The notes under the pieces are model-generated. The model saw only the letters and a list, made by a program, of their open reading frames with translations, did not search any database and was not told the origin of the DNA. Both the position numbers and the translations under genes were made by a program. Below are positions 613-39,169 of a DNA stretch of 64,000 nt, piece by piece. The stretch lies in the NCBI GenBank assembly GCA_947627595.1, contig CANQWQ010000008.1, positions 2,198 through 66,197 on the forward strand, written 5' to 3'. Source of the stretch: an uncultured Clostridia bacterium (GTDB taxonomy: Bacteria > Bacillota > Clostridia > TANB77 > CAG-508). Within the stretch, counting starts at the first letter, position 1; each line of letters begins with the position of its first letter.

Positions 613-752
613 GAGAGACATATATATTCTCCCAGCTCCTCCCACCTTCGAACGAACTATAAAATTTAAAGCAATATTCTTACTTTAAATTTAATAGTCC
701 GTAACTCGGCGGTCCCCACAGCGGTCGCTTGGGTCGAATATATATGTCTCTC
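613..752 (-). repeat. Structured GC-rich-core repeat, copy 1 of 3
   Basis: Perfect 17-bp outer stem gagagacatatatattc / gaatatatatgtctctc encloses a ~105-nt core that is near-identical to 13462-13605 (reverse complement) and 56586-56727. It starts 4 nt after the stop codon of the 757-1641 gene. Confidence 0.75.
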
Positions 753-5462: not shown

Positions 5463-5587
5463 TTTTTTCTTATTATGAGTTATTTCTTTCAAAAATATTA
5501 TTTTTTCCATTGTTTTTTTCTCTTTCATATATTAAAATAAAAAATGAGAAATGGGGACAGTCCCCTTTTCCCAAAAAGGAGATTTTT

Positions 5588-10154: not shown

Positions 10155-10187
10155 AATTAAAAATGGGAAAAAGTCCCTTTTTCCCAT
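10155..10187 (-). terminator. Hairpin terminator after spoVT
   Basis: atgggaaaaag / ctttttcccat palindrome flanked by A and T runs, 3 nt after the spoVT stop. Confidence 0.6.
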
Positions 10188-10189
10188 TT

Positions 10190-10745
10190 TTAAATTTCTA
10201 GATGAGAGCCTAAAAAACCTGCTGCTGACTGAGCTACTTTAAATTCTGGTTCGCCCATAGTTTTTGAAGCATCTTTTGCTATTAAAATTACGCTTCCAAC
10301 AACATCTCCATCAGATATAATTGGATAAATAACTTGTGAATTATAAATTCTCTGTTTTCCCTCTCCTTCTGTTACTGGAAGAGAAATATCATTATTTTCT
10401 TTGCTCTTAAAAACTTCTTTATTTTCTAGAACTTCTTCAAGTTCTTTGCTTAAATTTTTTTCTAAAAAATCTTTTTTGCTTCCACCAGAAACTGCTATAA
10501 CAGTGTCTTTATCTGTGATACAAGCAATATGTCCTGTAGTCTTAGAAATTGTTTCAGCATATTCACTAGCAAATTCAGAAAGTTCGCCAATAGGAGAATA
10601 TTTTTTCAAAACAACTTCACCATTTTGATCTGTAAAAATTTCAAGTGGGTCACCGTTCTTTAATTCGAAGAACTTTACGAATCTCTTTTGGAATTACAAC
10701 TCTACCTAAGTCATCTATTCTTCTAACAACGCCTGTTGCTTTCAC
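10190..10745 (-). CDS. spoVT: Stage V sporulation regulator SpoVT (AbrB-type N-domain plus GAF-like C-domain); needs +1 at CGG 10653
   Basis: GTG 10745 behind AAAGGAGG gives VKATGVVRRIDDLGRVVIPKEIRKVLRIKE-G-DPLEIFTDQNGEVVLKKYSPIGELSEF... Colinear with SpoVT as I remember it. Confidence 0.85.
10653..10655 (-). other. In-frame CGG at an ORF junction (putative +1 recoding site), spoVT
   Basis: AAA GAA CGG TGA, so the 0 frame stops at once. The +1 reading GGT GAC CCA gives RIKE-G-DPLEIF, the conserved AbrB/SpoVT motif. Confidence 0.75.
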
Positions 10746-13416: not shown

Positions 13417-13445
13417 TTGTTACCCTCGCTATTTTATGATATAAT
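13417..13445 (+). promoter_or_regulatory. Putative sigma-A promoter of uvrB
   Basis: TTGTTA (13417-13422), a 17-nt spacer, then TATAAT (13440-13445). The repeat element lies between it and the uvrB RBS. Confidence 0.5.
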
Positions 13446-13461: not shown

Positions 13462-13605
13462 ATATGTGAATATATATGTTGGAACAAGCGACCGCTGTGG
13501 GGACCGCCGAGGTACAAACTATTAAATTTAAAGGAATTTGATTGCTTTAAATTTTATAGTTCGTTCGAAGGTGGGAGGAGCGTGGAAACATATATATTCA
13601 CATAT
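13462..13605 (+). repeat. Structured GC-rich-core repeat, copy 2 of 3 (in the uvrB leader)
   Basis: Perfect 19-bp outer stem atatgtgaatatatatgtt / aacatatatattcacatat. The core is the reverse complement of copies 1 and 3. It ends 20 nt before the uvrB ATG. Confidence 0.75.
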
Positions 13606-13624: not shown

Positions 13625-15613
13625 ATGTTTAAATTAGTTTCAGAATACAAACCTACTGGTGACCAACCAGAAGCAATCGAATATTTAAGTAATGGAATTA
13701 AAGAAGGCAAAAAATTTCAAACTTTACTTGGTGTAACAGGTTCACGGGAAAACATTTACAATGGCAAACATCATTCAGAAAGTTCAAAAACCTACTTTAG
13801 TTTTAGCACACAACAAAACTCTTGCAGGCCAGCTTTACTCTGAATTTAAAGAATTTTTCCCTGAAAATAATGTTGAATATTTTGTTAGTTATTACGACTA
13901 TTATCAACCAGAAGCTTATATTGCTCAATCTGATACATACATTGAAAAAGATTCTTCTGTAAATGATGAAATTGATAAACTTCGCCATAGTGCTACTGCT
14001 TCTCTTTTTGAAACAAGAGATGTCATTATAGTCGCTTCTGTTTCTTGTATCTACCGGACTTGGTGACCCTATTGATTATGAAAATATGATAGTTTCTTTA
14101 AGACCAGGTCAAACAAAACCAAGAAATGAAGTTATGAAAAAACTTGTAAACATGCAATATTCTCGTAATGAAATGGATTTTAAAAGAGGAACTTTTAGAG
14201 CAAAAGGTGATATTCTAGAAATCTACCCATCTAATGAAGAAGAACGTGCAATTAGAGTTGAATTTTGGGGTGACGAAGTTGAAAATATAAATGAAATTAA
14301 TCCATTAACTGGAAAAGTTATCGCTAGTCGTAATCATGTTATGATCTACCCTAACTCACACTATGTTACAACTAAAGATAAAATGGATAGAGCTTTAGTT
14401 ACTATTGAAGAAGAAATGGAAGAACGTGTTAAATATTTTAAAGAAAACAAAAAACTTATTGAAGCTCAAAGAATTGAAGAAAGAACTAATTTTGATATTG
14501 AAATGCTTAAAGAAACTGGCTTTTGCCAAGGAATTGAAAACTATTCTAGACATATAAGTGGAAGACCTGCTGGTTCTCCACCCTACACTTTATTTGATTA
14601 TTTTCCAGATGATTTCTTACTTTTAATTGACGAATCACATGCTACAATTCCTCAAGTTAGAGCTATGTATAATGGAGATAGAGCTAGAAAAGAGTCTTTA
14701 GTAAATTATGGCTTTAGACTTCCATCTGCTTTTGACAATAGACCTTTAAAATTTGAAGAATTTGAAGAAAGAATAAATCAAGTAATATTTGTTAGTGCTA
14801 CACCTGCAGAATATGAAAAAGAACATTCTAAGAATAATGTAGTTGAGCAAATCATTCGTCCTACTGGACTTTTAGATCCTAAGATTGAAGTTAAACCAAC
14901 TGAAAATCAAATTGATGATTTAATTGAACAAATTCATGAAAGAACTGAAAAACAAGAAAGAATTTTAGTTACAACTTTAACTAAAAAGATGGCTGAAGAT
15001 TTAACAGCTTATCTTAGAAATGCTGGAATCCGTGTAAAATACATGCACTCTGACACTAAAGCTCTAGAAAGAATGGAAATTATTCGTGATTTAAGAATTG
15101 GTGAATTTGACGTTCTAGTTGGAATCAACCTTTTAAGAGAAGGCCTTGATATTCCTGAAGTTTCGCTTGTTGCAATTTTAGACGCTGATAAAGAAGGATT
15201 CCTTCGTTCAGAACGTTCATTAATTCAAACTATTGGTAGAGCTGCAAGAAACACAGAGCGGAAAAGTTATAATGTATGCTGATGAGCTTACAGATTCTAT
15301 GGATAAAGCCATTTCAGAGACAAATAGACGTAGAAAAATACAAGAAGAATATAATAAAAAGCATGGTATCACACCTCAAACAATTAAAAAATCTGTTAGA
15401 GATACAATTAAAGCTACAATCACTGATGATATTAAATCAGAATATGATATTAAGCCTGAAGAATCTCTAGAAGATGTTGTTGCAAGGTTAACTGATGAAA
15501 TGCTTAAACATGCTCAAAATATGGAATTTGAGCAAGCTGCAAAACTTCGTGATAAAATTAAAGAACTTGAAAAATTTATAGATGATAAACAAATTTTACC
15601 AACAAAAAAATAG
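13625..15613 (+). CDS. uvrB: Excinuclease ABC subunit B; needs +1 at CGG 13745, 14055 and 15259
   Basis: Four ORF fragments (13625, 13761, 14086, 15233) are colinear with UvrB: [38 protein letters not shown], helicase motifs, GRAARN, and the C-terminal UVR domain [16 protein letters not shown]. Confidence 0.95.
13745..13747 (+). other. In-frame CGG at an ORF junction (putative +1 recoding site), uvrB Walker A
   Basis: GGT TCA CGG GAA. The +1 reading GGG AAA ACA gives GVTGS-G-KTFT. Confidence 0.8.
14055..14057 (+). other. In-frame CGG at an ORF junction (putative +1 recoding site), uvrB
   Basis: ATC TAC CGG ACT TGG TGA. The +1 reading gives [15 protein letters not shown]. Confidence 0.8.
15259..15261 (+). 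other. In-frame CGG at an ORF junction (putative +1 recoding site), uvrB
   Basis: ACA GAG CGG AAA. The +1 reading gives [22 protein letters not shown]. Confidence 0.8.
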
Positions 15614-16661: not shown

Positions 16662-18493
16662 TTACATTTGAAATTGTGAGTTATATAAATCTGCGTAAAA
16701 TCCACCTTGTGCCATAAGTTCTTCATGATTTCCTTGTTCAATAATATTTCCATGATTCATAACTAAAATTAAATCAGCATTTTTAATTGTTGATAGCCTG
16801 TGAGCAATTATAAATGAAGTTTTTCCAACCATAAGTTTATCCATCGCATCTTGAACAAGTTCTTCTGTTCTTGTATCAACATTTGAAGTAGCTTCATCTA
16901 AAATCAAGAAAGGCGTATCTTGTATCATTCCTCTAGCAATTGTTAAAAGCTGTCTTTGACCACTTGAAACACTATCATTATCAGAAAGTTTACTATCATA
17001 ACCTTTTGGAAGTGTTTTAATAAAGTGATTTATTCCAACTGTTTTACAAACATCTTGAACAGTCTCATTTGACACATCTTCCCTATTATAAATAATATTT
17101 TCTCTAACAGTTCCATCAAATAACCATGTATCTTGTAAAACCATAGTAAATAAACTATGAATATTTTCACGAGTTAAGTCTTTTGTAGAGATTCCATCAA
17201 TTTTAATATCACCTGAAGTAATATCATAGAATTTCATCAAAAGATTAACCATTGTAGTTTTTCCGGCACCTGTAGGTCCAACAATTGCAACCTTTTGGCC
17301 AGGCTCAGCTGTAGCTGTAAAACCATTTATTGTTGGGTGATCATTTCCGTCATATTGGAATACAACATTTTGGAATTCAATTTTTCCTTTAACTTTGTCT
17401 TTATCTAAATTTTTTGTTATTTTTTCTTGTGATTCCATTTCTTTTTCATCTAAAAATTCAAAAACTCTTTCACTAGCTGCTGCAGATGATTGAAGCATAT
17501 TCATTGCTTGAGCAATTTGTGATAATGGTGATGTAAATAGTCTTACATATGTAATAAAAGCAACTATAACACCAAAACTAATTATATCTTTCATTGTTAA
17601 AATTGCTCCAACAACGCAAACTGCAACATATCCAAAATTTCCAATAAAGTTCATGATAGGTTGCATTAATCCACCTAAAAATTGACTTTTTCTGTTTGCA
17701 TCATAAACAGCTTTATTATATTTATCAAACTTTTCATCTGCTTCTTTTTTTCCATTATAAACTTTTACAACATTTAAACCAGAATAAACCTCTTCTATAT
17801 GTGCATTAAGGTTTCCAAGTTCTTTTTGACGTGCTGAAAAATATTTTTGAGCTTTCCCTAAAATTAAGAACATGAATATAAAACCTATTACACTAGCTCC
17901 AATGGCTGTAAAAGCTAATATCCAGTTTGTTTTAAACATCATAAAGACAGTTCCTAAAAATAATGTAACAGAGCTAACTAAAGTAGCTAAAGCATTATTT
18001 GTAGATTGCGCTATTGTATCAACATCATTTGTGATTCTTGATAAAATATCACCTGTTTGATGTTTATCAAAATATCTTAATGGTAATTTATTTATTTTTA
18101 AAGAAATATTTTTTCTAAGTCTTCTCGCAAAATTATTTGAAGCATCTGTCATTAATATTGATTGAATAAATGTGAAAATTGCACTTGCTATATACATAAC
18201 TGCAAGAGTTATTGCAATATTTTTAATTACTTCCATGTCCATTTTGCCAAAAAGGCCTTTTTGAATTTCATTTGCTAAATCTTTTAATTTGTCAGGCGCC
18301 ATAATTGATAAAACAGAACCTGCAATAGCTAAAATTAATGAAATTAAAATAAAAACTCTAAAATGTGCTAATTCTTTAAATAATCTTTTTATAGCTGATT
18401 TAAAATTCTTTGGTTTTTCAGCTGGGCCTCTACCGTCTACCCATTGGGCCTCTTCTTGGAGGATTGTTTCTTGGTCTTTCTTCTATTCCGCAT
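16662..18493 (-). CDS. ABC exporter, fused permease/ATPase (second subunit of a heterodimer); needs +1 at CGG 18488 and 18433
   Basis: ATG 18493 behind AAAGGAGG gives M-G-IEERPRNNPPRRGPMGR-G-RGPAEKPKNFKSAIKRLFKEL..., continuing into ORF 16662..18302. Walker A GPTGAGKTT, signature SSGQRQ, Walker B ILDEATS. Confidence 0.85.
18433..18435 (-). other. In-frame CGG at an ORF junction (putative +1 recoding site), ABC exporter B
   Basis: GGT AGA CGG TAG, so the 0 frame stops immediately. The +1 reading gives GR-G-RGPAEKPKNF. Confidence 0.7.
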
Positions 18494-20251
18494 TTTCCAA
18501 TTCCTCCTTTGACAATTGTGATAGAGCTATCTGCTTATAAACTTCGCAATTTTCTAATAGCTCTTTATGTGTTCCCTGTCCAACTACAGTTCCTTCATCT
18601 AAAACTATAATTTTATCAGCATTCATAATTGTTCCAATTCTTTGTGCAACAATTAGAGATGTCGCATTTTTAGTATATTTCTTAAGTTCATGTCTTAAAT
18701 TACTATCTGTTTTATAATCTAAAGCTGAAAATGAATCATCAAAAATATAAATTTCAGGGTCTCTAGCAATTGCTCTAGCTATAGCTAATCTTTGTTTTTG
18801 GCCACCAGATATATTTGTTCCTCCGTGAAGCAACATGTGATTCATAGCCTTCATCCATCTCTTCTACGAAATCTGTAGCTTGAGCAACTTTAATAGCATT
18901 TTTTATTATTTCTTCGCTTTTCTTTCCTTTTCCGTTTTCACCATAAGCAACATTATAATTAACACTTCCGTCAAACATAACTGCTTTTTGAGGAATATAG
19001 CCAAGTTTATTATATAAACTCTCTAATTTATAATCTTTAACATTTATTCCATTAACTAAGACTTCTCCATCAGTAGCATCATAAAATCTAGGAATTAAAT
19101 TTATAAGTGTAGATTTTCCTGAACCTGTTGAACCTATGAAAGCTACTGTATCACCCTGATTTGCTTTAAATGAAATATCTTTTAGCAAATATTCTTCGGC
19201 ATCTGGATATTTAAATGAAACATTTTTAAATTCAACTGTTCCAACTTCTTTAGCAGTATTTCCAGTTAATCTTCCACTCTTGATACTGCAATTAGTATCT
19301 AGAACTTCATTTATACGGTCTGCTGATACTTTAGCTCTTGGAAGGATCATAAATATCATAGCAAGCATTATGAATGACATTATAACTTGCATTCCATATG
19401 AGCTAAATACAACCATATCGCCGAATAATCCTATTTTCTCTAACATTCCGGCATTATTAATTAAATGTGCTCCAATATAATAAATTCCTAAAGTTAAGAA
19501 ATACATTATCAAATACATTATTGGTGATAAAATTGCCATAGTTTTTTGGTTAAATAATTGTGTATTTGTAAGTTCATTATTTACATCATCAAATTTATTT
19601 TCTTGATATTCTTCAGCATTAAAAGCTCTAACAACTCTTATTCCAGTAAGATTTTCTCTAGCAACTCCATTTAATTTATCAATTAATTTTTGAACTCTCT
19701 TGAATCTAGGAATTACAATTCCCATAAGAGTTCCAATTGTAATTAATAAAACTACAACACCTGCACCTGTAACTGCGCTCCATTGCCAGCTTTTATTTAA
19801 AATCTTAGTTATAGCCCAAACTGCATTAATTGGAGCTTTTATAAGCATTTGCATACCCATTGCAATAAACATTTGAATTTGAGTTATATCGTTTGTAGTT
19901 CTAGTAATCAAGCTACTTGTTGAAAATTGCTTTATTTCAGCAGTAGACAACTCTTCTACTTTTGAAAACAATTTCTTTCTAACTGAAAATGAAAATCTAG
20001 CTGAAACATTTGAAATCAAGTATCCAACAATTATTGCAGAAACTAAACTTGCAAATGCACAAGCAACCATATATCCACCATTTTTCAAAATTTCAGACAT
20101 TTCACTTCCGCTCAGTTTGAACTAAACGGGTTATTTCAGACATGTAATCTGGCATTTTTAGTTCAAGCCAAACTTGTGCAAATATTAACGCAAAACTTAT
20201 TAATATTACCAACACATCTTTTTTAGTTAAATTTTTAGCTAATTTAAACAT
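18483..20251 (-). CDS. ABC exporter, fused permease/ATPase (first subunit); needs +1 at CGG 20108 and 18823
   Basis: MFKLAKNLTKKDVLVILISFALIFAQVWLELKMPDYMSEITRLVQTE-G-SEMSEIL..., Walker A GSTGSGKST, then HVAS-G-GTNISGGQKQRLAIARA and IFDDSFSALD. Overlaps the downstream gene start by 11 nt. Confidence 0.85.
18488..18490 (-). other. In-frame CGG as codon 2 (putative +1 recoding site), ABC exporter B
   Basis: AAAGGAGGAATTGGAAA ATG CGG AAT. The 0 frame is only 18 codons long. The +1 reading gives M-G-IEERPRN. Confidence 0.65.
18823..18825 (-). other. In-frame CGG at an ORF junction (putative +1 recoding site), ABC exporter A
   Basis: GCT TCA CGG AGG. The +1 reading gives HVAS-G-GTNISGGQKQRL, which equals ORF 18483..18854. 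Confidence 0.75.
20108..20110 (-). other. In-frame CGG at an ORF junction (putative +1 recoding site), ABC exporter A
   Basis: ACT GAG CGG AAG TGA. The +1 reading gives VQTE-G-SEMSEILKNGGYM, which equals ORF 18775..20100. Confidence 0.7.
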
Positions 20252-31488: not shown

Positions 31489-32973
31489 TTATTTGTTACT
31501 TTTTCTTTCATATAACACAAATAAATTATCTCCATAAATTGCTTCATAATTTTTATCTTCACTAATGTAATTATTTATAATTTCATCTTTATCAAGCAAT
31601 ACATGTGTTATATTATATTTTTCAAATATTCTCTCATAATGAAATTTTCCACTAGTCACATCTATCCAATCTGCTAGAACTGTGCAATTAGGATTTTCTT
31701 GAACAGTATACATTCCAGATCTGCTATCAAGAAATACTTTTATTCCATTTAATTCTAGATAACTTCCCCAATTAAAGCTTGTGAAAATTCTCATATTTTC
31801 ATAATCAGTATTATTTAAAATCCAATCTGTAGCATCTTTTGGGTAAGTTAAATCATGAACATATTCTTTAACCAAATTTTTTGATAATAATCTAATTGAA
31901 ACAATCGCAGTAAATGAGCAAATTACCATTATAAAAACTGTAGATTTTTCAAGTTTTTTAAGGACTTGGTCTTTTTCATCGATATAAGTATTTATAAACT
32001 CTGTAATAATATTCGTAAAAAATATTATTCCTATTAAAGTCAAGAAAAATACATTTCTTTTAGTAACTAATGAGAAAAGAATAAATCCTAAAACAAATAA
32101 TAAATCTTTTATATTAATTTTAGTTTTTGTAAAACCAACTATTGAAAAAGTTATAAAAGTTATTACCATTATTGGCATAAATGAAGTAAAATTAAGTGGT
32201 TTAAGCTCTTGTATAAAATTTGTTGATACTCCACTCATACAATAAACTAAATTTGTATAAGCTGTTCCAAATATAGGTGTTAAAAATCCTATTAAAATAG
32301 CTAAAACTATCAGTATTATCAAATATTTTTTGTTTGTAAAATTAGAATTTTTAAATTTATCTGAATTTTCTAATTTAAAAATTTTTGTCAAAATAATTTC
32401 AGCTATATATGGCATTAACATAACAAAAAATAATGGATAAACTGTATCATGAAAATTAACTAATAAAAATGCTAAAACTAATAATAGCCAAAAATATCTC
32501 CTTTTTCCTCTTTCAAGCAATCCATTTAAGCACAATATTTCTAACTCAAAAATCAAAAATGAAAATATTTGATTTCTAGCAGCAAATGTACCTTGAGAAA
32601 TATAAATTGCTATAATGCTCATTATAAACGATAAAATAAGTCCATTTTTATGTCTTAATAATGATACAAATATTGAAATTCCTATCAATCCAGATATTAT
32701 TGCAGTAGTAATATAAATTCCTGTAAATCCAAATGAACTATATAATAAATACATTATTACATTGCAAATCCAACCTGGATATGTAAATCTTAAATTTTCA
32801 TGAAAAGACCAATGATCAATTCCGTCAATTACGTGTGTTTTAACGATTCTTTCTCCTATTGGAATATAAAAGAAAGTATCATTTTGCATAGTTTTATCTA
32901 CAATACTTATTGTAAAAAACGCAATTACCAAAGCCAAAATTATATATTTTAATTTCTTCTTCATAAGCTCCAT
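31489..32973 (-). CDS. Large polytopic membrane protein (possible GT-C-type glycosyltransferase)
   Basis: 494 aa, >10 TM helices, with a soluble C-terminal domain. No firm family call. Confidence 0.5.
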   Translation of the reverse strand: MELMKKKLKYIILALVIAFFTISIVDKTMQNDTFFYIPIGERIVKTHVIDGIDHWSFHENLRFTYPGWICNVIMYLLYSSFGFTGIYITTAIISGLIGISIFVSLLRHKNGLILSFIMSIIAIYISQGTFAARNQIFSFLIFELEILCLNGLLERGKRRYFWLLLVLAFLLVNFHDTVYPLFFVMLMPYIAEIILTKIFKLENSDKFKNSNFTNKKYLIILIVLAILIGFLTPIFGTAYTNLVYCMSGVSTNFIQELKPLNFTSFMPIMVITFITFSIVGFTKTKINIKDLLFVLGFILFSLVTKRNVFFLTLIGIIFFTNIITEFINTYIDEKDQVLKKLEKSTVFIMVICSFTAIVSIRLLSKNLVKEYVHDLTYPKDATDWILNNTDYENMRIFTSFNWGSYLELNGIKVFLDSRSGMYTVQENPNCTVLADWIDVTSGKFHYERIFEKYNITHVLLDKDEIINNYISEDKNYEAIYGDNLFVLYERKSNK

Positions 32974-32976
32974 CCA

Positions 32977-34047
32977 TTATTTATAAATTATAGTTCTAAA
33001 CCCTAAAATACTATGTGTTGCGTCTTCATCATCTGTAAATCTATCACAGAATAACATTTCATCCTCATAAAAAACTGTTCTTCTAAATATTCTAGATCCA
33101 TATTTTTGCTCTTCTGTCCATTCTCCATAATCATCTATTAAATCATAAATATTTTTATATACACTATTTCCAGTAATTCCAGTTCCTCTAGGAATATTAC
33201 CCATATCTATCTCATCTAACATAAATCTAATAGCTATATCATATGCAAAGCCATTTAATAATCTTGAATTAATATTATCATACATATTTCTAGCTAATTT
33301 ATTAGCATCTGTATAATTTATATCTACCCAAACCTCTTTACCAGCCTTGCTTACAGGGTTTCCGTTTTCATTGCTCATTTCAAATCTAGCAATATAAAAT
33401 CCCCCATTTTCTAATAAACTCTCAATAAAGTTTTCAAAACCAGTTTCTTCATAACATTCGAAATATGATTGACTAGTATTATCTTTCATAAAGTTTTCTT
33501 TTCTAATTATCGGAATGTTTTCATCATTTTCTAAATTAGTGCAAGGAACCCAAACAAATTGATTTTGATTTTCATCTTCTATCACAAAACCGCTATTCCA
33601 CTCGCCTTCAACATATTTAAAACCTTCTGGAATATATGGGTTTTTGCAATTTTCAATATTAGTTTCAGTTTTCATCAATTCCTTAAGCTTTTTATTTTGA
33701 GAATTTATAACTTGTTTACTTTCCTTGTTAATTTTTTCATGATATTCATCTTTGCTTGTAGCAAATTCCATAGTTGTTCCTGTTCTCATAAGCAAATTCA
33801 CTGAATATATTTCAATTATCAAAATCAAACCTATAGCTAATACATTTTTCACTAAAATCTTTGTCTTAAAAATTCTTACATTTAATATTTTTTTAATAAT
33901 TTTTCTTAAACGCTTGCTTGTAATTACTATCATTATTATAAATGTAATTATAGCTGAAATCGCTATTAAACTTAAGTCTCCCATAGTGTTCTCCTTTGTC
34001 GCCATTATATATCTATATATATAATTTTGCAAGGACTTTTTTGGCAA
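32977..34047 (-). CDS. Hypothetical membrane-anchored protein
   Basis: 356 aa with one N-terminal TM helix. The C-terminal part is faintly like the FGE/SUMF1 fold (low confidence). Confidence 0.45.
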   Translation of the reverse strand: MPKKSLQNYIYRYIMATKENTMGDLSLIAISAIITFIIMIVITSKRLRKIIKKILNVRIFKTKILVKNVLAIGLILIIEIYSVNLLMRTGTTMEFATSKDEYHEKINKESKQVINSQNKKLKELMKTETNIENCKNPYIPEGFKYVEGEWNSGFVIEDENQNQFVWVPCTNLENDENIPIIRKENFMKDNTSQSYFECYEETGFENFIESLLENGGFYIARFEMSNENGNPVSKAGKEVWVDINYTDANKLARNMYDNINSRLLNGFAYDIAIRFMLDEIDMGNIPRGTGITGNSVYKNIYDLIDDYGEWTEEQKYGSRIFRRTVFYEDEMLFCDRFTDDEDATHSILGFRTIIYK

Positions 34048-37797: not shown

Positions 37798-38340
37798 CTA
37801 ATTATTTGTTCCGTTTGAAGTAACCATTCCTGAACTTTGAGCAGATATTTGATAAGTTCCATTACCACTAATTGAATAGAAAATTCCTCTTATTGTTTGA
37901 GATAATGTCTTATTACTATTTTTAGCACTAACAGAGATTATATCTCCTTCTTTCATTGTATAAACTCCGTCTCCATCACCTTCCATAGAAGCCATATAAT
38001 TCATTATTTGTGATGTATATACTGAATAATAATTGTTTTCACCTATAACTTGTTTTTGGGTCCAAGCTGATTTTTTACCAATGTTTTCATCTAAAACTTT
38101 TATTTCGATTTCAACATCATATTTGTTTCCAGTAGCTTCTATTTTGCTAACTAGTTTATTATATTCGTTCATTGTAATTTTTCCTGTTCCAACAGCAGTA
38201 TTAACAAACTCTGTAACTGCGCTTTGAACAGTAAGTTGTGAAATATCATCACTACGTTCTGCTATACTCATAAGTGGAAATATGAACATAAGAATTGCTG
38301 CTAAAAATATTGCAATTACTGTTATTAAAGAATCACTCAT
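37798..38340 (-). CDS. Pilin/pseudopilin-like protein (N-terminal hydrophobic helix, no leader)
   Basis: MSDSLITVIAIFLAAILMFIFPLMSIAE..., 180 aa. AAAGGA lies before the ATG. Confidence 0.5.
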   Translation of the reverse strand: MSDSLITVIAIFLAAILMFIFPLMSIAERSDDISQLTVQSAVTEFVNTAVGTGKITMNEYNKLVSKIEATGNKYDVEIEIKVLDENIGKKSAWTQKQVIGENNYYSVYTSQIMNYMASMEGDGDGVYTMKEGDIISVSAKNSNKTLSQTIRGIFYSISGNGTYQISAQSSGMVTSNGTNN

Positions 38341-38364
38341 AATTTTCTATCCTTTCAATTTTTT

Positions 38365-39135
38365 TTATGATATAGGTAATAATTGATAAATTATAATAAT
38401 TTTTGTTGCGATTTGTTTGCTTCCAGTTAAAGTAACTATTTCATTTTCATCGTTTGTAACTGTATCGCCTTCATAAGCATATTGAGTAAATACTTCTCTA
38501 AATTTTCTATCTTGAAAATTATTCAAAGATACAAGTCTTGAATCATGTTGACCAATTGGCTGAGAATAATCAACTAAAACATTGTTTATATATCCTTTTC
38601 CGCCATTAATATACATGTCTACTCTAGTTTTGGCATCCTTATTTATGTTAGCAAGCCATGGTACGCCAAACATATAGCAACAATGTTGTGGTACGGTAGT
38701 ATCACCAACATCATATAAAGACAACAAAGCCTTTTGCTTACTTCTTTTTAAAATTTCTGCACGATCTGATGTAGCAGTAGTTCTCTCTTGAGTAACTTTA
38801 GCAGCATTAACATCACCTTCTGTAGTTGTATCAAAATATTGTAGTAATGTTCCATCAACATCTAAAATTTTTACAGCAAAACTTTCTTTGTAATAACGAT
38901 ATAAAGTAGGTATTATGGTATCAAGACCGACTACTCTAGATCTGTTGCTATTGTCATTATTATTTCCTAGAATTCTCTCTAGAGAAAAACTATCATAATA
39001 AGAACCATCTAATTTGTATGTAATTGTTTCAGCAGCTGCATCTAGTTTGTTAACTAAAACTAAAGCAACCGAAAACGCAAGAACAAACGCAAACATAGCA
39101 GCAGCCATATATAGAGCATGCGATAGATTCTCCAT
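38365..39135 (-). CDS. Leaderless pilin-like protein (MENLSHAL paralog)
   Basis: MENLSHALYMAAAMFAFVLAFSVALVLV. AAAGGAGG lies before the ATG. Confidence 0.6.
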   Translation of the reverse strand: MENLSHALYMAAAMFAFVLAFSVALVLVNKLDAAAETITYKLDGSYYDSFSLERILGNNNDNSNRSRVVGLDTIIPTLYRYYKESFAVKILDVDGTLLQYFDTTTEGDVNAAKVTQERTTATSDRAEILKRSKQKALLSLYDVGDTTVPQHCCYMFGVPWLANINKDAKTRVDMYINGGKGYINNVLVDYSQPIGQHDSRLVSLNNFQDRKFREVFTQYAYEGDTVTNDENEIVTLTGSKQIATKIIIIYQLLPIS

Positions 39136-39169
39136 AATACCTCCTTTAAGATTTCATCGTTAAAATAAA

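Follow-up and report, generated by a model that had tools for sequence, protein, structure and literature searches.

A mobile palindromic repeat family with a conserved asymmetric core and copy-specific arms in uncultured gut Clostridia

Introduction

REPs, REPINs, ERICs, and Correia elements are examples of abundant small palindromic repeats whose mode of movement is still largely a matter of inference. To our knowledge, almost all of the well-studied families come from Proteobacteria. Here we describe a family of palindromic repeats found in a 64,000-nt stretch of DNA (the window) from an uncultured Clostridia bacterium (assembly GCA_947627595.1, contig CANQWQ010000008.1, positions 2,198 to 66,197, forward strand), which adds a low-GC case from the Firmicutes, very clean in its anatomy, together with an exact pair of filled and empty sites about 1% apart. 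Two described kinds of repeat are its closest analogues. REPINs consist of two conserved regions around a compensated spacer, form a hairpin in single-stranded DNA or mRNA, are non-autonomous, and leave no target duplication (PMC3116915). [quoted passage not shown]

Results

The window holds three copies of the element (copies 1, 2, and 3; Table 1), at the places where the original prediction, made from the letters alone, had put them. The conserved left block, GCTCCTCCCACCTTCG(AACGAAC), and the conserved right block, CTCGGCGGTCCCCACAGCGGTCGC, each occur exactly three times in the 64 kb, where shuffled sequences are expected to contain neither, and the cores, predicted to be near-identical, share 90 to 93% of their nucleotides, in a window whose G+C content is 24 to 32% apart from one richer stretch. 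We refer to the C-rich strand of the element as its plus form; the opposite strand is purine-rich. The common plan is one long imperfect hairpin, with an AT-rich outer stem, an asymmetric GC-rich core, and an inner AT-rich hairpin. The outer stem is about 17 to 23 bp long, and in the window copies it is perfectly Watson-Crick paired over 17, 19, and 15 bp, respectively, the first two lengths as predicted and the third replacing an estimate of 13 + 3 bp. Its sequence had been thought unrelated from copy to copy, which holds for the outermost 6 to 9 bp but not for the inner part, where (TA)n followed by GTTTTC or ATTCTC is common to the copies. On the purine-rich strand, the stem is followed inwards by a 2 × 2 loop (GA/GA), a freely covarying 3-bp helix, a bulged A, and GC/GC, and the invariant core reads GC-GA-CC-GCUGUGGGGA-CCGCC ... 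GGUGG-GA-GG-A-GC. Three finer features of the original prediction, namely the loop variants of the inner AT hairpin, the A-U/G-C covariation beside the bulged A, and a CCGCC/GGUGG helix dependent on a G-U pair in one of the strands, are all present. The inner hairpin measures 61 nt in one species and 67 nt in another, and its sequence drifts while its pairing is kept. The element is 140 to 157 bp long, with long forms of about 225 bp, and its most conserved nucleotides are the unpaired ones.

Both strands fold far better than dinucleotide shuffles (z of −6 to −10). When a hand-written structure of 40 pairs was laid on an alignment of 12 copies, 95.3% of the cells fell in standard pairs and 12 of the pairs proved to be changed on both sides, which none of 500 shuffles reached; as a control, sliding the partners by one to three columns lowered pairing to 36 to 45%. 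The fold is kept by compensatory changes, and the covariation by which the original prediction was to be judged is thus present. Because the copies are few and related, these statistics show that a hairpin is maintained but not in which molecule. Translation of all frames of all copies revealed no open reading frame (ORF) that is both open and started in every one, and indels between copies shift the frames. ORFs of 45 to 67 amino acids do cross copies 2 and 3, one of them called as a protein in a public assembly, but the lack of a shared frame, together with the independent assembly of the same loci in many samples, leaves practically no room for a small protein-coding gene or an assembly artefact as the explanation.

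That the element moves is apparent from copy 3, which is polymorphic among strains. L033 and L034 (L-numbers denote loci or contigs from relatives and other assemblies) come from different samples and are 98.8 to 99.3% identical to the window over 13 kb, with polA 99% identical, and both lack copy 3: their polA-tetR spacer is 17 nt long, TAA-C-TACAAGGAGAAAGAGT-ATG (polA-TAA-C-TACAAGG-tetR), and the window has 165 nt (56572 to 56736) where this empty allele has 8. The site is also empty in the outgroup L020/L021 (88% PolA identity and the same polA-tetR-fadD synteny). Since both the strain diverged by about 1% and the outgroup L020 are empty, copy 3 is a recent gain. Its arms, ATAATCAAAAATATG and CATATTTTTGATTAT, are both missing from the empty site, where there is no palindrome, and the exact comparison of filled and empty alleles yields no unambiguous direct duplication. 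The insertion includes a one-sided, AT-rich extension of 12 nt. At the polA junction, two synonymous differences fall within the last 7 nt and the next mismatch is 126 nt off, a clustering for which we estimate a p value of about 0.003 at about 1.1% divergence; the insertion event has probably disturbed the bases adjoining copy 3.

The sites of the other two window copies tell a similar story. L026 (74% protein identity) conserves the promoter and leader that adjoin copy 1 and has an empty site there without a palindrome, and the copy 2 site is empty in strains L039 and L041 (CATT(T)AA|ATT(A)AAC), where the left context differs as well. No direct repeats flank the element at 12 copies examined for them, and the insertions lie in AT-rich intergenic DNA, often 0 to 12 nt past a stop codon. 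At the syntenic locus L002, from a metagenome-assembled genome (MAG), an element lies 2 nt past the stop of a spoIVB-like gene; this site is not comparable with the window, where two extra membrane-protein genes (31489-34047, −), absent from L002, lie between the spoIVB-like gene and murC. PolA relatives at 80 to 85% identity (L022 to L025) differ in their downstream synteny and hold no copies. Upstream of polA, sbcD/sbcC, which encode a hairpin/palindrome nuclease, are split into several ORFs in L022 (6482-9990), L023 (136-3602), and L024 (556-3950), and they are absent from this position in the window; their state could be relevant to the tolerance of long palindromes.

These comparisons bear on the idea that the element inserts into pre-existing palindromes, so that hairpins of the host, terminators for instance, would supply its stems, and the core would have entered their loops. 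Several copies do stand right after stop codons, where terminators are expected. However, the empty sites, exact for copy 3 and also seen for copies 1 and 2, are not the plain palindromes that the original prediction had envisaged and contain neither arm; a palindrome scan of the window found no unoccupied N7-(TA)n-N7′ sites; and the stems are AT-rich with no T-runs after them, the terminator scan calling none. As the arms are missing from all three empty sites, the targeting of palindromes is rejected, and the inserted DNA carries both arms; we consider this explanation very improbable. Of the proposed small mobile element that targets or creates palindromes, mobility is thus borne out by the strain polymorphism of copy 3 and the empty copy 1 and 2 sites, and creation, though not targeting, by the insertion of both arms. 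We conclude with high confidence that the element is mobile palindromic DNA.

Further copies are few and closely confined. A scan for a right-block 20-mer over one genome per GTDB species found a single relevant organism, the MAG 'uncultured Clostridia bacterium Lapin-004__bin20' (Lapin-004__bin20), which belongs to a species other than the window's and carries eight copies on eight contigs; three further matches, in high-GC genomes, are chance ones. One more copy, L027 (from ERZ27249088), emerged from a profile search of 5.8 billion proteins with translated pseudo-ORFs, and two half-copies are exposed in the chimeric contigs L013 and L042, so that at least 13 copies are known, all intergenic. 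A de novo covariance model (R1) run over 215 kb returned known copies only. Exact 20-mer scans gave no match in viral contigs and merely two chance matches, on high-GC contigs, in JGI metagenomes, and BLAST of the element against plasmids and phages gave none. Rfam at the gathering threshold has no match across the window and six loci except a T-box elsewhere in L005, and at E < 10 the window and the MAG loci give only chance matches of microRNA type, in keeping with the original prediction, which had matched the element to no RNA family. Literature word searches found no account of such an element. It is previously undescribed and, as far as the searches reach, confined to two or three related uncultured gut Clostridia.

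The window organism recurs in ENA and Logan assemblies, with at least three strain types among the ERZ2724xxxx/ERZ2706xxxx samples and Logan runs, and contigs L016, L017, L032, L040, and L044 terminate within the element. In L013 (3693-3860), the polA side is joined to a uvrC-side locus, and in L042 (196-360), an accD-like side is joined to the tsaC side, in each case half of one copy meeting the flank of another. Most likely these joins are assembly chimeras formed at the repeat, the alternative being real recombination between copies. In short-read metagenome assemblies of this lineage, the element is a source of breaks and chimeras.

The hairpin may be maintained as DNA or as RNA. A structured RNA module would have its selected function in the transcript of the purine-rich strand, as a 3′-end protector, processing site, protein sponge, or small RNA, with a stable UTR hairpin, tandem G·A pairs, k-turn-like internal loops, and GGA/GGAGG motifs, and DNA mobility would be its means of spread. 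In its favour, the three window copies would be transcribed as the same strand, with copies 1 and 3 right after stop codons and copy 2 behind a promoter-like site; covariation is strong, and the unpaired nucleotides are the most conserved; and L027 tolerates a 39-nt hairpin in a large internal loop, as RNA families tolerate optional stems. The purine-rich strand is also the more stable one in each of the 12 copies, by about 11 kcal/mol (means of −61.7 versus −50.5 kcal/mol), and the wobbles favour this strand, with 24 G·T cells (12 without the invariant pair) versus 4 A·C cells among the non-standard ones. Against it, the same orientation to flanking genes that had been predicted holds in the window, provided that copy 2 is assigned to the uvrB 5′ UTR, but the family as a whole is split 7:7, a distribution that speaks against a strand-specific cis-acting RNA role. 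Scans at the three window copies found no conserved promoter or terminator belonging to the element, and no intrinsic terminator was called there, the stem base being AT-rich and without a T-run. The G·T pair in CCGCC/GGTGG is invariant in 12 of 12 copies, never G-C, and it is retained in either orientation to the genes, even where the other strand would be transcribed. By our own reading, the outer arms of 11 copies comprise about 85 pairs, all of them Watson-Crick and none a G·T, and wobbles do occur in the inner helices; such outer stems suggest DNA copying. Nor does any Rfam family match. Of the predicted structured RNA or mRNA element, the structure therefore stands, and a strand-specific role is weakened by the mixed orientation and the Watson-Crick stems, though wobbles and purine-rich loops favour one strand. 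We regard a selected RNA function as unlikely. A strand constraint that takes no account of which way the genes are transcribed is consistent with recognition of a folded single strand of DNA, as well as with a sequence-specific protein site, and less so with a cis-acting RNA. If the element affects host mRNAs, for example, by forming a stable hairpin in a 3′ or 5′ UTR, we would regard this as a by-product.

A second alternative is a classical MITE, a derivative of an ordinary (DDE) insertion sequence that has lost part of its interior and would move as double-stranded DNA by way of its terminal inverted repeats, with target duplications too short or too AT-rich to be seen. Small size, AT-rich ends, intergenic position, a stable hairpin transcript, and multiple copies are typical traits of such elements (PMC10969869), and the inner (TA)n-GTTTTC / GAAAAC-(TA)n behaves as a conserved inverted repeat. 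The original prediction's description of the element as the opposite of a MITE was therefore overstated, since the inner stem is a conserved inverted repeat and two blocks around a compensated spacer are the REPIN layout (PMC3116915). The long forms L003, L008, and L042 moreover have an outer module with an inverted repeat of its own, TCAGnAACGC / GCGTTnCTGA. On the other side, no direct repeat is seen at any of 12 copies or at the exact filled/empty pair, the outermost termini vary, where an inverted repeat bound by a transposase should be the most conserved part, the best-conserved part is internal, asymmetric, and unpaired, and no parent insertion sequence is seen in the approximately 350 kb examined. 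A classical MITE is accordingly a rather improbable explanation.

The size variants show how the plan can be extended. In L027, the 39-nt insert GCAAAGCGTGAAACTTTTGCCGAAGGCAAAATGTTGCTC (359-397) lies exactly inside the conserved 10-nt loop (GCTG^TGGGGA) and holds its own hairpin, TTTTGCC-GAA-GGCAAAA. The long forms carry a 28-nt outer module, TCAG(G/T)AACGC...CCTA...GAG, in L003 (3068-3095) and L008 (280-306, − strand), both from the MAG, and in the L042 half-copy (196-222), which belongs to the window species; this module was looked for alone and never found without the element. The right extension of L003, AGCGTTACTGA, is partly complementary to the left one and makes a palindrome of about 225 nt. 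In L008, a lone right-end fragment, GCTTACTCAAACATATATATTTAC, lies about 65 nt past the right arm of a complete copy, in plus-form orientation, and may be the remnant of a second copy or a partial duplication. The shared module and the one-sided extension of copy 3 hint at layered growth.

The reading that we favour, with moderate confidence, is that of a lineage-restricted, non-autonomous palindromic mobile DNA of REPIN or hairpin-MITE type whose core is recognised by an enzyme acting in trans. The invariant unpaired core, with its G·T never repaired to G-C, would be the recognition site, and the enzyme would act on one folded single strand, by analogy with Y1/HUH transposases on REP and IS200/IS605 hairpins or IntI on attC; our confidence in this single-strand mechanism is modest. 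The copy-specific Watson-Crick outer arms are unlikely to reflect slow compensatory drift, because the inner stem is near-identical within a genome and the arms are unrelated. They might instead be rebuilt at or soon after insertion by DNA-templated fold-back (template-switch) copying, which would explain both their perfection and their similar total length, although we hold this with low confidence; alternatively, sequence similarities among arms suggest that these may be inherited markers of sub-lineages. A comparison of arms with the flanks of other copies, as expected under donor-flank capture, involves too few copies and too AT-rich a sequence for a meaningful outcome. A more radical version, in which the element is a new single-strand "hairpin transposon" recognised through its internal asymmetric core, cut at a roughly fixed distance, leaving no target duplication and regenerating its termini by fold-back into perfect palindromes peculiar to each copy, appears doubtful to us. 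If it were true, the onion-like outer layers (the shared (TA)n, the variable arms, and the optional 28-nt module) would record the history of transposition.

As to the enzyme, the sister-species locus L020 has a Y1 (IS200-like) gene (1-634) whose best NCBIfam match is the REP-associated tyrosine transposase (RAYT) family NF047646, at 56 bits and thus below the curated cut-off of 80 bits. This RAYT-like gene is a candidate and a lead only. A lone GC-rich motif after it, AGCTCCGTCCCCCTGTCTG (675-693), loosely resembles the element's blocks; the GC-rich motif beside the gene (GCTCCGTCCCCCTGTC) occurs only once.

Several observations weigh against the reading that we favour. The RAYT-like locus of L020/L021 holds no copy of the element, no homologue of its gene is present in the window, and neither the window nor the sequence linked to any copy yielded a transposase. 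The 13 or 14 copies come from two or three related species, so that the covariation and wobble counts are not phylogenetically independent, and the wobble contrast shrinks, at the level of sites, to merely 7 or 8 versus 2. The direction of replication, as inferred, shows no orientation bias, at 2:1 in the window. Similar arms recur at unrelated loci of two species, copy 3 sharing AATCAAAAA with L006, and copy 2 sharing GTGAA with L003, L008, and L042. Finally, as regards a fold-back origin, the arms of copy 3 match neither flank of its empty site, and the 12-nt extension lies on one side only.

Table 1. Positions of the palindromic element and its parts in the window
Feature	Coordinates	Strand	Remarks
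Copy 1, palindromic element, 140 bp	613..752	plus form on +	covariance model score 135.8 bits
Copy 1 5′ arm, GAGAGACATATATATTC	613..629	+	outer GAGAGAC copy-specific
Copy 1 3′ arm, GAATATATATGTCTCTC	736..752	+	perfect complement of 613-629
Copy 1 conserved left block, GCTCCTCCCACCTTCG	635..650	+	
Copy 1 inner AT-rich hairpin	651..704	+	sequence species-specific; compensatory changes keep pairing
Copy 1 conserved right block, CTCGGCGGTCCCCACAGCGGTCGC	705..728	+	invariant in canonical copies; 39-nt interruption in L027 only
Copy 2, 144 bp	13462..13605	plus form on −	
Copy 2 arm, AACATATATATTCACATAT	13462..13480	−	− strand reading
Copy 2 arm, ATATGTGAATATATATGTT	13587..13605	−	− strand reading
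Copy 2 conserved left block	13566..13581	−	
Copy 2 conserved right block	13488..13511	−	
Copy 3, 146 bp	56584..56729	plus form on +	adjoins polA stop codon (56730-56732)
Copy 3 arms	56584..56598 and 56715..56729	+	
Copy 3 conserved left block	56610..56625	+	
Copy 3 conserved right block	56680..56703	+	
AT-rich 12-nt stretch beside copy 3, ATTATTAATTAT	56572..56583	+	missing from empty allele; outside inverted repeat
polA last 7 nt (T AAG TAA)	56730..56736	−	2 synonymous differences versus empty allele (A AAA TAA), at insertion junction

Copy 1 lies between the stop of an RsmB/F-like gene (757) and the −35 box (608) of the promoter of the next gene, which is RNase J-like and has the consensus promoter TTGACA-17-TATAAT, from 608 to 580. 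Copy 2 is flanked by a divergent tsaC-like gene and a uvrB pseudogene, and a promoter-like site directed towards uvrB (13417-13445) lies upstream of it. The uvrB gene (13625-15613, +) is broken into at least four ORFs (13625-13843, 13761-14066, 14086-15282, and 15233-15613), and two independent assemblies, L035 and L036, call the same fragments, so that a real pseudogene, and not a sequencing error, accounts for the breaks. Downstream of polA, the tetR-family gene (55994-56555, −) is frameshifted into ORFs of 46 and 152 amino acids, a break common to a strain with copy 3 (L012) and one without it (L033); in the 88% relative L020, tetR is a single call of 164 amino acids with the C-terminal TetR domain only. 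Split genes are also found at 18483-20100 and 44271-45922 (−), for an ABC-transporter ATPase/permease and a secretion-type ATPase in a Flp/Tad-like pilus cluster, respectively; together with uvrB and tetR, they suggest a genome that is accumulating pseudogenes. Next to Tad-type secretion genes there is a series of small paralogues that begin with MENASKALI... (Flp-type pilin-like; 37798-42132, −). Another small repeat, TAAAATAAAAAATGAGAAA(A)TGGG(G)ACAGTCCC(C)TTTT..., occurs at 5533-5573 (+) and 51455-51495 (−) in copies that are about 90% identical, with a looser relative at 10157-10193; it folds a GGGAC/GTCCC hairpin between A- and T-runs, as a bidirectional terminator would.

Discussion

In this study, we describe a repeat family with an unusual division of labour, in which an invariant unpaired core is set against disposable, perfectly paired, copy-specific ends, and which inserts without a recognisable target duplication. 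Should the core prove to be a strand-specific recognition site, the enzyme could be sought directly through it, and so could a test of whether ends are regenerated by fold-back. Housekeeping genes (rsmB-like/RNase J, uvrB, and polA/tetR) also have the element directly against their stop codons, promoters, or 5′ UTRs, where it may alter expression.

The folded single-strand substrates to which we compared the element differ from it in their architecture. Integron attC sites are likewise folded single-strand recombination substrates, of 57 to 141 nt, in which structure matters over sequence and unpaired bases give the choice of strand. However, attC conserves its outer R″/R′ boxes (RYYYAAC / GTTRRRY) and varies centrally, and the element does the reverse, with termini of (TA)n and copy-specific bases; its copies are dispersed singletons and not cassette arrays next to an integrase. 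IS200/IS605 elements share with it the strand-specific recognition of imperfect hairpins and insertion without target duplication, which is the mode that we infer for the element, possibly 3′ of a short motif (by our own reading, 9 of 12 copies have an A-rich or TAA-like left flank on the purine-rich strand). In contrast to the one continuous hairpin of the element, they have separate left-end and right-end hairpins and guide-set cleavage sites, and neither a tnpA/tnpB gene near the element nor a match to the Rfam omega/IS605 RNA models was found.

Closer in form are the hairpin-forming MITEs and related repeats. Correia/NEMIS, ERIC, RUP, and Coxiella QMITE2 elements resemble this one in being AT-rich, 100 to 200 bp long, and situated between genes, frequently in 3′ UTRs or a short way upstream of a gene, and Correia lies upstream of uvrB, as copy 2 does. 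Transcripts of hairpin MITEs fold into long hairpins, and size variants arise through internal insertions, as in ERIC (PMC10969869). Yet these elements have conserved terminal inverted repeats and target duplications of TA or longer, whereas the present copies differ from one another at their extreme ends, show no detectable duplication, and are best conserved in an internal asymmetric core. Given the lack of both a target duplication and conserved extreme termini, the element is unlikely to be a classical MITE.

The family resembles REPIN/RAYT systems in its layout, with two conserved regions, a spacer between them in which compensatory changes preserve both length and pairing, and a whole unit that forms a hairpin in single-stranded DNA or mRNA; both are extragenic, non-autonomous, multi-copy, and free of target duplication (PMC3116915). 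Imperfections in the helix make the strands distinguishable, and a RAYT-like gene, below the cut-off, is present in the sister species. The differences from REPINs lie in the blocks, which are neither palindromic nor inverted copies of one REP, are unequal in length and only partly complementary (GC, CC, and CCGCC/GGTGG), and include, on the right, 10 extra unpaired nucleotides and an internal direct repeat (GCGGTC twice); by our reading of the sequence, the element has no GTAG/CTAC tetranucleotide. It also has an additional long AT-rich outer stem with copy-specific ends, no repeat-flanked RAYT was found, and the host belongs to a low-GC Clostridia lineage. Because its blocks are neither palindromic REPs nor inverted copies and no RAYT linked to them was found, the element cannot be filed as a REPIN. 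We file it as a variant of the palindromic mobile-repeat kind, with REPINs and hairpin-forming MITEs as its closest analogues.

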